Virus record (IMG/VR): IMGVR_UViG_2718218104_000010
Strand: one strand, 5' to 3'
From: a virus
Lineage: Duplodnaviria > Heunggongvirae > Uroviricota > Caudoviricetes
Length of the DNA: 51,671 nucleotides
Numbering within the stretch: position 1 is the first letter of the stretch; the number at the start of each line of letters is the position of its first letter. A program made the position numbers. This document shows, piece after piece, positions 27,001 through 33,000 of the stretch.

Positions 27001-30000
27001 TGCCAGATACTCGAGGGAATTAGCCGATGCGAGAGCTGAAAATGAAACTCTGCGTGCTGATGTTGCCGCTGGTCGTAAGCGCCTGCGGATCAACGCCACC
27101 TGCTCCGGTACCGTGCGTGAAGCCACCGGCACCTCCGGCGTGGATAATGCAACCGGCCCCCGACTGGCAGACACCGCTGAACGGGATTATTTCATCCTCA
27201 GAGAACGGCTGATGGCAATGCAGAAGCAACTGGAAGGAGCACAGGAATATATCCGTACCCAGTGTATACCGTGATGTTTTGTTATGAGGGTGTTACTGGT
27301 AACGTTAAGGTAATTTAACAAAGAGTCAGTTCCGGACTTTATAGTGTGCTCAGTTCATGGCCAAAAACGATTTCTGTGATAAATATTTTGAATATTATTT
27401 ACAGGTAAATGGAGTGGGGCACATGGATAGAAATATTACAATAGAGAATGAAGTATATGCCCGTATTGTATGGGCAGAGAAGGCAAAAACACGGTAATTC
27501 CGTGTGTTGCCATGATACCTGATTGGCAGAATAGTTGTTTGGTTTTGAGTATATAGTCAGCGTTTTTTGTTCAGTAATTGCTCCCTCAAAAAATAATAAA
27601 ATAAGGTGATTATTTTTGTTTATTATTTAGTTTTTTTTGTGTGTTGTTTTATTGTTTTTGCGTGGTTTGTTTTTTATTGTTATTTCATTAAGGGAAGGTA
27701 AATTCAGGATGGCAGTCTGTAGATAATCGGAGGTCACTTATGCTACATGATCACGTGGCAGAATGTCTGGAGAAAAAAGGACTGTACCGGAGAGCAGCTG
27801 AACGATGGGCAAAAGTGATGGTACAGCTAAGTGATGACCAGAAAAGAAAAGTGGCGGCACAGAAACGAGCAGAGTGTTTGCGTAAGGCGCGCCGGACTCC
27901 GGTTTCACCGGTGAACCTGACCGAAATAAAACAAGCGGTCAACAGACTACATTCTGAGTTGGGAATGGGATTTGAAGAGCGGCGGGTATTCCGACGATAT
28001 AAAGGGACAGGAGAACAGAATACGTCCGGAAACGCGCGGTCAAAAAAATGCTAAAAAATATCTGAGAGCGTTATTGCCTGTTACCATAAGAAAAAGCGAC
28101 TTTAGTGGTCGCTTTTTGTGTCATATATAAGTCGTTTAAGTAAACCTGTCTGAACAGGTGCTCTGGTCGTGTTTGTCTTTGTTGGGTACAAATTGAGAAT
28201 ATTTTTCATTAATTAATGAACCGCCCCGGGTTTCCTGGAGAGTGTTTTATCTGTGAACTCAGGCTGCCAGATCATCGTTTCCGATGGAAGCATAATAAGC
28301 TTTTTCTGCTTCTGCCGGAGGAGTATGGCCCAGCCTTCCCAGCAATCGTCGATTGTTATACCAGTCCACCCACGTTAGTGTGGCCAGTTCCACTTCTGCA
28401 CGGTTTTTCCAGCTCTTACGGTGTATTACCTCCGCTTTGTAAAGACCATTGATGCTCTCAGCCATCGCGTTGTCATACGAGTCGCCTGTACTCCCTGTTG
28501 ATGCCAGTAATCCGGCTTCTTTTAGTCGCTCCGTATAGGCCAGTGACACATACTGAGAGCCTTTATCGCTGTGATGGATGGTGCCAGACGGACGACGGGC
28601 CCACAACGCCTGCTCCAGCGCATCCAGCACGAATGTCGTTTCCATAGACGATGAGACCCGCCACCCCACGATGTATCCGGCAAACACATCAATGATAAAC
28701 GCCACATAGACGAAGCCCTGCCATGTGCTGACGTAAGTAAAATCAGCCACCCACAGCTGGTCAGGTCGTTCTGCCACGAACTGACGGTTTACGCGGTCGC
28801 CTGCGGCAACGGCTTTCCGGCTGATGGTCGTACGGACCTTTTTACCCCGGAGAACACCGGCAAGTCCCATAACCGCCATGAGACGTGCCACTGTACATCT
28901 GGCCACCCTGATTCCTTCCCGTAACAACTGACGCCAGACTTTACGCACACCGTACACCTGATGATTTTCATCGTATACGCGCTGTATCTCTCTCTTCAGC
29001 CAGTCGTCGTGCTGCGCACGGGCACTGCGTTTATCCGGATGATGTCGCTGTTGCTGACAATGGTAATACGTTGACGGGGCAATATGCAGTTCGCTGCATA
29101 CCGGTCCGACCCCGTACTGCTCACGCAGCTTATCCAGCAGTGGCATCATTTTTTCCAGAGGCGGTCGAACTCCGCCTTCGCAAAATAAGCGGAAGCCTGG
29201 CGAAGGATATCGTTACTGCGGCGCAGTTCACGATTTTCACGTTCCAGCTCTTTCAGACGCTGACGTTCAGCGCTGGTGAGCCCACCATCACCGCCCCCGG
29301 TATCCCGCTCATGCTGGCGAACCCAGACACGCAGAGTCTCCGGCGTACAGCCAATCTTTGGGGCAATGGAACAAATTGCCGCCCACTGTGAGTCATATTC
29401 ATCCTGACTTTCCAGAACCATACGAATCGCCCGCTGACGGACTTCGGGGGAAAAACGAGTATTTTTAGTCATCCTGTTTACCTCTTTCTCAGGGAGTTTA
29501 GTCTCCAGGATTTCCGGGGCGGTTCAATCCGCATATTGATAATATATTGACAGGCATCATTGCTGTCTGTGAAAAATAAGTCTCTACAAACATATAAGGC
29601 CTTTTAGCCAGCGTCTTCTTTCAGGTCAGTCGCTGGCTCTTTTTTTATTATGCTGCCGGTGCATTTATCTCCAGCACCAGACTTTCTATCTCAACGCCAT
29701 ACGCTGCATTTTTTGTAACATCCGTCAGCGTCAGCGCATTCAGTCCCAGTGTCAGACTGTCTTTTATAACCTGGAATGCCGGGCCAGCCACTCCATTCAG
29801 TTTCGGAGTAACCGTGGCACTGCCGGCGGTGAACACCAGCTCCAGCGTCTGCCAGTCGTTACCGTAATCGCCGAACTCCCCCAGCTTCGTGTTTCCGGCT
29901 TTCCTGTGATGCATCAGATTCACTCTGCCGTCAGTGGTCTGAGTGAAGTACGACATCAGGAACGGATTACCGGTACCCGTCATCGCCACACCATCAGGAA

Positions 30001-33000
30001 CGGGAGCATCCGTATACAGATAAATCCCCAGCCCGAACTGATTGTTGGTCAGTGCGCCTGACAGGCGGAACTTACAGTTCAGTCTGCCGCCCTGTGTCAG
30101 CAGGGTAATTGCGTCATCCACCGGATGCGTCAGGGACCAGGTTTTATTGCTCTGCCTGGTGATCTTAAATACACCATCTGACAACTGAATTCCGCCATCC
30201 TTAATGCTCCAGCCCTGCGCAGCAGCCTCTCCGGCTGCCGGCAGCAGGGAGATTGTGCGAACGGACGTATCTGCAGACGGACCCGATGGCGTGTTGCCGC
30301 CGGGCGAGGGTTTGATTTCCGGTGCCTTACCACTGATGAAGGCGGAGGTGCGCCCGGCTGCGTTCAGAATAGCGGTTGCCAGACGATCCGGAATAATGCT
30401 CCTGCGCGCCCATGAACTGAAATGTGTCGGGCGGTTTGATGATACCTGGTTTCCATTCGTTCTCGATGCCGCACCGTAATATCCTGATGCCGGAATATCC
30501 GGATCTTCTGCCGGCGCGTTAGTGGCGGTATTGACGCCGTTACCGTCTGTCATGAAGGGCACAAAATAAACGCCCTCACTCTCCCTGTTTTTATACCCGC
30601 CGTACACGGTGTCGTACTGGGTAGCGTATGTATTTTTCCAGTAATACGTCGTATCACCACAAATCCACGGCACATCTGCAGCACTGCCACCATGGCACTG
30701 CGCGTTAAACACGGAGAGGTCAGCACGAAACTGTGTCAGCATGGCTGTAAACAGCGCAGGTTGCTGTGCGTGGGTGGCGGCGCTCATGTCAAACTCTCCC
30801 TGCATCCAGCACACCGCCAGCAACACATTTTTCGGGTTCTTCTGTAATGCAGCTTTAGTGCGCGCAATCAGGTCCTGATATAACGGTTTACCCACACCCC
30901 AGCGTGCCGAATCCTGGCTGGCCCCCGTGTCCGCACTGAATGTCCCCTCAGCGCCCTGGGTGAATGCAGAACCACCACGACAGCATGGTACCAGCAGGAT
31001 CCCCGCGTTATTCGGGATATACGGAAGCAGTTTTTTGGCAATATGTAAGCCCTGGCCGACACAGCCGTACTGCCCTTTGCTCAGGTCTGCCTTCGGATGA
31101 TTCAGCGTACTCATATCCTGCACATCATGCAGGCAGTGGTCGGCCGGAATGATGTCGTTATACGTACAACTCTCTCCACCCGGAGTTACCGTGCTGCGGC
31201 GCGCCAGCTGTTTAATGCGCGGATCCGGAGCATCGTAAGAATCCGGTAACGGAAGCCCTTCACCGTAGGCCATGCCGTTGGACTGTCCGGCCAGTACGAT
31301 GACGTAGTACCAATCCGGCTCAGATGAAGGGCCGACCTGTGGCTCTCCTTCAATAGCCACCGCCTGCATCAGTGTGTACGGCGTAATGGCAACCGGTCCG
31401 CCGTATGGCTGCCAGCCCTCTTTCAGTTTGTGTGTCAGCTTTTCCGCAAGGTCTGACGGCGACGCCGCCCTGACAACATCATAGTGTTTAAATGCCATGA
31501 ATCCTCCCGGCCGGGATAATATTGTGAGTAAAATGAGGAGCGGGCTGAAGTCCGGAAGTTACAGGACAATGGCAGAAGAGAGACAACAGCCCGCAATACG
31601 AAAAAGGCCGCGCTATTGCGCAGAGTGATTACTGTCGGATATTATTCGCCAGCTGAAATATTACTTCACGTTTTGTTGTTTATTCCTTGCCGCCCGCGTC
31701 TCCCTGCGCGGGCTTTTTTTGTCCATAAGAAAGCCCCTCCGGAGAGGGGCTGGAGAGTGGCGCTATGTGCCATTGCATGGTGCCGGGTGCCTCCCGGTGA
31801 ATTCAGTACCAGCACCTGAATCCGCGATTATCCCATATACCTACTCGCTGATTGCCCCTCCGCACAGGGGGATTCACCATGCCAGTTTCTTTTAACAAAC
31901 TCCCCGCAAACCAGACAACAGTCAACCGCCTGAATTGTGAGACATTTAAAAAAAAGGCCCGCAAAAGCGAGCCAGGGAAAATAAGTGTGGCGCGTTGTAC
32001 TGGATTCGAACCAGTGACCGATTGCTTAGAAGGCAATTGCTCTGTCCGGCTGAGCTAACAACGCAGGATACAGATAATGGACCGCCTTCGGGGACCCGAA
32101 CTCCGCGCAACCAGCTTCGAAAGCTGGCGCTCTTTCCTGATGAGCTAATGGCGGTATGTGATGGTGGCCCTTGCTGGATTTGAACCAGCGACCTGGCGAT
32201 TATGAGTCGCTCGCTCTCACCACTGAGCTAAAGGGCTGGGTCAAAAAATAATAATCAGATGAAAATCAATAATCAAGCCCTTGCCTGGATACATATCTGT
32301 CTGGCGGGAAGCCATAATAGCGGTGAAATACAGAAATAAAGTAGGACCAGCTTGAATAACCGCATTTTTCTGCTACAGCCTGTCCATATCCATGCCGGGA
32401 ACATAACATATTGACAGCAACACGCATCCGCTCTTCCAGCAACAAGCGACTGAACATGTGCCCTTCATTTTTCAGTTTTATCTTTAACAAACTCTCACTC
32501 ATATGCAGGCGTAACGCAATCGCACCAAGCGTCCAGCTTGCTGATATATCTGTCTGAATTATCGCCCTGACTTTGGCACTTATACTGGATAAACATCCAC
32601 TTAAAAATAATAATATCCGTTCATCTGATTCAAACAGCGACAGGCATGCCATCATAAGAAACATATCCGTGGTATCTCCGGAAAATCTCTGGCTGGTAAT
32701 TAAAGCCTCAGCCAACGCAGGGTTGTTGGGTTCCAGTGACAGATAAAGCGGAACGTCAGTCAGATGAGTTCTTGTCAGCTTATGCTGAATTTCCAGATAT
32801 TGACTTACTATGGAATGGTTTATATCGAAAATTTTAACTTTGCCATAATGCATAAGGAAAAGCGCCCTGATGCATTTGGTGGCCAGAACGACTGAGCCGG
32901 GCTTAAGTGACAACGTATCCTTTTCAAGAAAAATATTAATTGGGGAGCAAACCATGATAACTGAACAGACAACAACCATTATAATTTTACTTTCATTAGC

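Follow-up and report, generated by a model that had tools for sequence, protein, structure and literature searches.

The nanS-p gene examined here lies on the minus strand of a 51,671-nucleotide virus sequence (IMG/VR record IMGVR_UViG_2718218104_000010; Duplodnaviria; Heunggongvirae; Uroviricota; Caudoviricetes), and this whole stretch of DNA is called the window below. In the direction of late transcription, the locus consists of the antiterminator gene Q, three further genes at 32266-34424, a cluster of three tRNA genes, a 489-bp spacer (31499-31987), nanS-p, and a copy of the insertion sequence (IS) IS629 (Table 1). The three genes between Q and the tRNAs encode a CPBP/Rce1-like membrane protease, a frameshifted TrmB-like product, and PsrA, an AraC-type regulator of type III secretion. 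An earlier note on this DNA had proposed the order Q, tRNAs, (stx), nanS-p, where stx stands for Shiga toxin (Stx) genes. The order up to nanS-p is looser than this, with the CPBP gene, the TrmB-like pseudogene, and psrA between Q and the tRNAs. The tRNA-to-esterase intergenic region that it gave as 490 bp is also present, 1 bp shorter. This spacer contains no stx genes, as the note had stated, but it is not blank: it holds two convergent RNAs that are bound by Hfq in E. coli O157:H7 strain Sakai.

Table 1. Features of the nanS-p locus in the window, listed by position
Feature	Position	Strand	Basis
IS629 copy, 120 bp past the nanS-p stop, interrupting the late operon	28217..29527	-	Annotation, comparison
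Hfq peak EcOnc52, antisense to the nanS-p 3' end and converging on it	29581..29658	+	Tree et al. 2014 mapping
nanS-p (ECs_1088 orthologue), 616 aa, ATG start	29648..31498	-	ORF call, Pfam, structure matches
125-bp block immediately upstream of nanS-p	31499..31623	-	Alignment
Antisense Hfq-bound RNA EcOnc08/EcOnc21	31555..31720	+	Hfq peaks, terminator, alignment
STnc100-family sRNA, EcOnc05 of Sakai Sp4	31721..31911	-	Rfam RF02076
Empty stx junction	31945..31946	-	Comparison with Sp5
Post-argO intrinsic terminator after tRNA-Arg(TCT), then T8 run	31956..31973	-	Hairpin scan, folding, 933W record
tRNA cluster ileZ (CAT) - argN (TCG) - argO (TCT)	31988..32237	-	ARAGORN; names from 933W and Sakai records
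psrA (ECs1087)	32266..32979	-	Annotation
CPBP/Rce1-like membrane protease gene	33600..34424	-	Pfam/annotation
Antiterminator Q	34570..34950	-	Pfam Phage_antitermQ, E=9e-52

Several E. coli O157:H7 chromosomes matched the 5.2 kb around nanS-p with 100% identity and had agreeing annotated neighbours, and at least 80% of this nanS-p-bearing stretch was present in 530 complete genomes. In Sakai, the counterpart region sits within an annotated feature named 'prophage Sp4, lambda-like phage'. The 489-bp spacer matched Sp4 base for base, and the nanS-p open reading frame (ORF) corresponds to Sakai ECs_1088, from which it differs at 4 of 616 residues. The location, the tRNAs, psrA, the CPBP gene, Q, IS629, and an inverted lysis cassette are also shared with Sp4. 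In contrast, the Sakai IS629 beside nanS-p is internally deleted whereas the window copy is intact, and the window carries two extra IS copies, one in the holin gene and one at 37529-38840. The window ends with an integrase gene adjoining yccA. By sequence, the window is thus identified as Sp4, a defective lambdoid prophage of E. coli O157:H7 that lacks stx, sits at yccA, and is equivalent to CP-933M; the nanS-p locus is its late-region 'moron' zone. The locus is already known, and our finding is a correct reading of it; the occurrence of nanS-p in non-Stx prophages, the tRNA/stx/nanS-p layout, the STnc100/EcOnc27/PasD RNAs beside the esterase gene, the small RNAs (sRNAs) of Sp4, and the Sp4 defects have all been published. 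With a probability of about 0.9, we read the locus as the nanS-p of Sp4 with an empty stx site, a convergent pair of Hfq-bound sRNAs, and Q-dependent late transcription. In this reading, the locus identity, domains, catalytic motifs, stx absence, sRNA match, and terminator were established directly in the analysis, and the Hfq binding and northern sizes, the esterase activity of NanS-p alleles, and the Sp4 defects were taken from papers.

The product of nanS-p is named 'SASA family carbohydrate esterase' in RefSeq. In the Pfam search, DUF1737 (PF08410) was found at residues 3-49 (E=1.2e-15), the SASA sialate acetylesterase/SGNH domain at residues 66-262 (48.4 bits; curated cutoff, 24.8), and DUF6645 at residues 467-577 (E=5e-18). 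In a search of solved structures, residues 60-379 matched NanS/YjhS (3PT5, E=6e-121) and residues 421-613 matched the lectin-like C-terminal domain of a phage NanS-p (6YP6, E=1.4e-29). Alignment with NanS and three NanS-p proteins showed that the catalytic motifs are kept, with Ser73 in the block I motif GQSN and His359 in the last block, RPTHFSS. The lectin-like domain of NanS-p proteins is a jelly roll with an aromatic sugar-binding site; of its four aromatic positions, three are retained here (F488, Y493, and F518), and the fourth is L584. The chromosomal NanS (YjhS, 3PT5) has a homologous catalytic domain with the GQSN and HFSS motifs but lacks both DUF1737 and the C-terminal lectin-like domain. 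Chromosomal NanS is an exported protein; inspection of the N-terminal sequence of the window protein revealed no hydrophobic signal sequence.

The DUF1737-SASA-lectin-like architecture is shared with the NanS-p proteins of Stx phages (933W L0105/Z1466, YYZ-2008 gp42, and phi24B vb_24B_21), as is the placement of the gene after Q, the tRNAs, and an sRNA pair and before the lysis genes. The identity was 96% to the protein of the Stx1 phage YYZ-2008 and 57% to 933W L0105, which has 645 residues. The window gene differs from its Stx-phage counterparts in having no stx upstream and a C-terminal domain from another sequence group; in addition, its block IV carries RPTH in place of RSSH/RASH. The RPTH variant of this R-x-x-H block has also been reported for prophage 86. 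The SASA domain, the Ser and His motifs, DUF1737, and the late-region location place the protein in the NanS-p family, and the 616-residue SGNH esterase of nanS-p type described in the earlier note was thereby confirmed. By homology with NanS and the assayed NanS-p enzymes, the protein is predicted to be a cytoplasmic three-domain sialate 9-O-acetylesterase. Such an enzyme would remove the 9-O-acetyl group from 5-N-acetyl-9-O-acetylneuraminic acid (Neu5,9Ac2) of mucin-derived sialic acids, which could then serve as a bacterial carbon source. According to reviews, the NanS-p alleles of the EDL933 prophages are active and late-induced, and the O104:H4 alleles are also active.

Sp4 is badly damaged, and nanS-p might accordingly be taken for an inactive relic of a decaying prophage, without present function. 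An ISEc8 element in the terminase region, a frameshifted large terminase gene, a truncated capsid gene, three IS629 copies in the window, and the inverted lysis cassette with its split holin gene would all suit such decay. However, the ORF is intact over its full length, its catalytic motifs are kept, and it shows only the 4 substitutions relative to Sakai together with high identity (96%) to a phage-borne orthologue. The conservation of the gene-bearing 5.2 kb in 530 complete genomes is also at odds with a relic, and we consider this explanation highly improbable.

Next, we examined the spacer and the rest of the window for traces of stx. Stx2A and Stx2B from Sakai Sp5 and Stx1A and Stx1B from phage YYZ-2008 were used as queries. 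A tblastn search of the whole window with these four proteins gave a best E value of 0.22, located outside the spacer, and a search of the spacer alone with permissive settings gave chance matches only. In blastn searches, the complete stx1 and stx2 regions aligned to the flanks only, with no remnant of stx or of an stx promoter. The interval from the tRNAs to nanS-p holds neither stxA and stxB nor pieces of these genes, and the prophage is thus not a Stx-converting one. The absence of stx genes held for the whole window, and together with the close relationship to the NanS-p of an Stx1 phage it bears out the description of this DNA as an stx-negative relative of Stx phages.

The whole Sp5 sequence from argO to nanS-p was then compared with the window by blastn. 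It aligned in three pieces: 34 bp right after argO (31980-31947), 31944-31774, which corresponds to Sp5 sequence starting 42 bp past the stx2B stop codon, and 31623-31499, which is the 125 bp preceding nanS-p. The 1,332 bp of Sp5 that contain the stx2 promoter, stx2A, stx2B, and a 41-bp trailer are replaced in the window by the 2 bp of the junction. In the direction of the late transcript, the joint reads GCGGGCCTTTTTTTTA-AA-TGTCTCACAATTCAG. Just before it lies the post-argO terminator, which the 933W record labels a 'possible rho-independent terminator upstream of the stx genes'. Thus, the stxAB site of Stx phages, flanked by the post-argO terminator on one side and the STnc100-type sRNA on the other, is vacant in the window, with a clean joint. 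Of 5,426 complete E. coli genomes, 937 covered at least 80% of a 111-nt query spanning the joint; an avian pathogenic E. coli (APEC) O1:K1:H7 strain was among them, and partial matches to this query stopped at the joint. Because of this frequency and this breakpoint, the empty state is considered common and the joint a standard module boundary.

The earlier note left two origins open, a relative that is stx negative and a prophage that lost stx. Sp4 or its late segment may once have held stx and lost it without a scar by homologous recombination with an stx-less relative, the shared flanks being the block of tRNAs and terminator on one side and that of sRNA and nanS-p on the other. Sp4 indeed has the two flanks of the stx cassette in common with Stx phages, and the 96% identity of NanS-p is to a counterpart from a phage that carries stx1. 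In addition, the joint of phage Nil3 (AM051322; a partial record, from a bovine O157:H7 strain) shows that such an exchange occurs at exactly this point. Over the stretch that runs from Q to the post-argO terminator and includes the tRNAs, Nil3 has 98.7% identity to Sp5, and its positions 6-448 are 100% identical to window positions 31545-31987, a spacer without stx. By its sequence, Nil3 looks like a recombinant of Sp5-type and Sp4-type late regions in which stx2 was replaced by the empty site. The clean empty site of Sp4 is readily available as a partner in recombination that removes stx, of the kind seen at the Nil3-type joint. Against a loss in Sp4 itself, no remnant of stx or its promoter was left, and the Q type and the moron content (CPBP, psrA) are unlike those of 933W-like phages. 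Moreover, the empty joint occurs in 937 genomes that include the APEC strain, which is not a Shiga toxin-producing E. coli; a state found so widely may be the ancestral one. We therefore regard a past loss of stx from Sp4 as unlikely. On sequence grounds, the clean and widespread joint favours a site that was unoccupied or recombinationally replaced over decay in place.

The spacer downstream of the joint carries a full-length match to the STnc100 sRNA family (RF02076; 138 bits, where the gathering score is 47; E=2e-30; model positions 1 to 206 of 206), with its own terminator stem at 31751 to 31732 (-19.6 kcal/mol). This RNA is EcOnc05 of Sakai, which was reported as Hfq bound at Sakai positions 1179806-1179914 on the plus strand, with a length of about 222 nt (Tree et al. 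2014). Sakai coordinates were converted by the relation window = 1211656 - Sakai, derived from the identical spacer and gene ends, and the EcOnc05 Hfq peak was thereby placed at 31850-31742 on the minus strand. A 142-bp coordinate shift between Sakai genome versions is present at Sp5. For Sp4 it was ruled out by the position of the EcOnc05 northern probe (31819-31853), which agrees only with the unshifted mapping. Like other prophage sRNAs of the STnc100/EcOnc27/PasD family, EcOnc05 sits upstream of a sialate esterase gene. EcOnc27 of the Stx2 phages belongs to the same PasD-related family and lies just downstream of stx2B, whereas EcOnc05 directly follows the tRNA terminator with no stx before it; the central part of the RNA is variable among relatives.

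Annotation pipelines have placed differing small hypothetical coding sequences (CDSs) on differing strands of this spacer, at 31767-31892 on the plus strand in the window and also in two homologous spacers. These CDSs are probably spurious, since they lie over the STnc100 RNA and the indels in the aligned region have lengths not divisible by three. For annotation, the tRNA-to-nanS-p spacer is better described as two sRNA genes with terminators than as blank DNA or small hypothetical CDSs.

The second RNA of the spacer is antisense to the late transcript. EcOnc08 (Sakai 1179938-1180010, minus strand, about 271 nt by northern blotting) and EcOnc21 (Sakai 1180016-1180101, minus strand) were reported as parts of the same transcript (Tree et al. 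2014). Their Hfq peaks map to 31646-31718 and 31555-31640, respectively, on the plus strand of the window. The mapped peaks end at a plus-strand hairpin with an 8-bp stem of which 7 pairs are G-C (31692-31713), followed by T7 (31714-31720). Its stability was -16.7 kcal/mol (z=-3.5), and none of 200 shuffled sequences was as stable. With its G+C-rich stem directly followed by a U-tract, the hairpin is an intrinsic, rho-independent terminator. Because the peaks end there, it is the 3' end of EcOnc08/21 and not an anomaly. The earlier note had placed this hairpin at 31688-31718 and described it as opposing the gene direction; the structure is real, at 31692-31720, and the opposition is explained by its role as the terminator of an antisense RNA.

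Alternatively, the hairpin could be one half of a bidirectional terminator or insulator for late-strand transcription instead of the end of a separate RNA, and its position, about 10 to 18 nt from the minus-strand STnc100 terminator and tail to tail with it, would be compatible with this. It has no downstream U-tract on the minus strand, however, and the antisense-strand Hfq cross-linking peaks that end at it are accompanied in Sakai by a northern band of about 271 nt. Proven anti-sRNA terminators also occupy the aligned position in other prophages. These observations make the bidirectional terminator a very unlikely explanation, and they are in line with the 3' end of EcOnc08/21.

Across six related phage and prophage sequences, the hairpin changed only at one position of its 6-nt loop, TCTCCC(T/A/G), and in the length of its T run. 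It is kept in five other phages, the stx-less PhiR5_1 and phi296, the Stx2 phages Stx2_EC3283 and ASU11, and the marked Stx2 phage 1720a-02, whose spacers are 80 to 92% identical overall to that of the window. In Sp5 and YYZ-2008, the aligned position is held by the terminator of an AsxR/EcOnc03-type anti-sRNA, so EcOnc08/21 and the AsxR/AgvB/EcOnc03 anti-sRNAs are alternative (allelic) cassettes in one slot. Convergent sRNAs between a moron CDS and a conserved ORF have been described in Sp3, Sp4, Sp9, Sp10, Sp11, Sp15, and Sp17 (Tree et al. 2014). Both cassettes occupy the slot between the moron and nanS-p, are antisense and convergent with an STnc100-type RNA, end in a G+C hairpin with a U-tail, and are bound by Hfq. 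Members of the AsxR/AgvB family are 51 to 60 nt long and share a conserved 3' segment of about 42 nt (GTATCTCATGC...GCCCGAACCCAYTCGGGC), whereas EcOnc08/21 has no similarity in this segment and a reported size of about 271 nt. An identity of EcOnc08/21 with AsxR or AgvB was thus rejected on the alignment and the length, as well as on the Rfam result given below. Because the AsxR string from the supplement had no exact match in Sp5, probably through a text-extraction error, position and alignment were used instead.

The Hfq binding of EcOnc08/21 is published, and as far as we found, the literature does not describe its targets or function. It is possible, though doubtful, that EcOnc08/21 is a functional regulator forming a second class in the lambdoid anti-sRNA slot, allelic to AsxR/AgvB/EcOnc03. 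If the length of about 271 nt is true, the RNA would span the Shine-Dalgarno sequence and start codon of nanS-p and could act in cis on the leader. It might otherwise act in trans by way of a G/U-rich single-stranded segment, GUUUUGUUGUUUAUU (31672-31686), that immediately precedes the terminator on its 5' side. The promoter scan for the antisense RNA gave only a weak sigma-70-like site at 31492-31520 on the plus strand (9 of 12 matches), from which the transcript would be about 194 nt long against about 271 nt by northern blotting. The fold of 31527-31721 was not unusually stable (z=-1.1).

The 125-bp block immediately upstream of nanS-p aligned in all compared Stx1, Stx2, and stx-less relatives, with 94% identity to Sp5 and 77% to YYZ-2008. 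It contains the Shine-Dalgarno sequence GGGAGGA at about 31505-31511 and opens with a weak terminator-like hairpin (31623 to 31608, -9.1 kcal/mol, z=-1.9). A consensus scan of the spacer revealed no minus-strand sigma-70-like site that could serve as a promoter of nanS-p itself. Because of this and of the several terminator-like hairpins between Q and the ATG, nanS-p is most likely expressed within the Q-antiterminated late transcript, as would be expected from lambdoid phage biology. Before reaching nanS-p, the Q-modified RNA polymerase would then pass no fewer than three intrinsic terminators, as well as the tRNA cluster. For comparison, a review describes strong induction of z1466 of 933W together with the late genes. 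Because NanS-p has no signal peptide and the Sp4 lysis cassette is inverted with a split holin gene, release of the protein would rely on lysis driven by other prophages.

Two points weigh against the overall explanation of the locus. The Rfam models of AsxR and AgvB gave no match to EcOnc08/21 at E<=1. In addition, Sp4 is defective, with a repressor that lacks the peptidase domain, a defective Xis, and nu1 split by ISEc8, and it is amplified solely via regional replication of the adjacent Sp5 (Asadulghani et al. 2009). Given this repressor and this mode of amplification, Q-driven expression of this nanS-p copy may be rare.

The lysis genes were also compared with the order S-R-Rz that the earlier note had placed after nanS-p, and this part of its proposal did not hold. 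The late operon is interrupted by IS629 only 120 bp downstream of nanS-p, and the plus-strand genes beyond it face nanS-p: a DUF3950 fragment, pchA (27740-28054), Rz/Rz1 (26750-27274), and R (25938-26471). The nanS-p-to-holin spacer of YYZ-2008 is split in the window, with one part at 29525-29724 in the same orientation and the other at 23792-23410 inverted. Because the two halves align in opposite orientations, the lysis cassette (about 23410-28216; holin, R, and Rz/Rz1 with pchA and the DUF3950 fragment) is, by this comparison, inverted relative to the late operon, as in Sakai Sp4. One breakpoint of the inversion is the IS629 copy beside nanS-p. A second, IS629/IS1203-like element (23791-25101), which shares 95.7% identity with the other copies, interrupts the holin gene S and divides it into fragments at 23731-23793 and 25098-25247. 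For annotation, this nanS-p copy is best recorded as separated from its own lysis genes. The third IS629, at 37529-38840, lies between the hok/sok region and an alpha/beta-hydrolase gene. The elements at 23791-25101 and 37529-38840 are both absent from Sakai and are each flanked by 4-bp target duplications. Because it is missing from Sakai and also from the otherwise identical strain 4276, the IS629 at 37529-38840 is a strain marker.

At the 3' end of nanS-p, the EcOnc52 peak covers a weak terminator-like hairpin (29624-29638, -5.1 kcal/mol) and a T run that reaches the nanS-p stop codon. By its position, EcOnc52 may correspond to PasA/PasC, an sRNA that has been described in the interval from the esterase gene to the holin gene.

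Elsewhere in the window, ISEc8 (IS66 family, with tnpA, tnpB, and transposase genes) at 20105-22700 disrupts the small terminase gene; the large terminase gene carries a frameshift, and the major capsid gene is truncated. Rfam matches were also obtained for the sok antitoxin RNA (36962-37136, minus strand), beside hokD, and for DicF RNA (47186-47237, plus strand), near dicB; both are typical cargo of Qin/Rac-like prophages.

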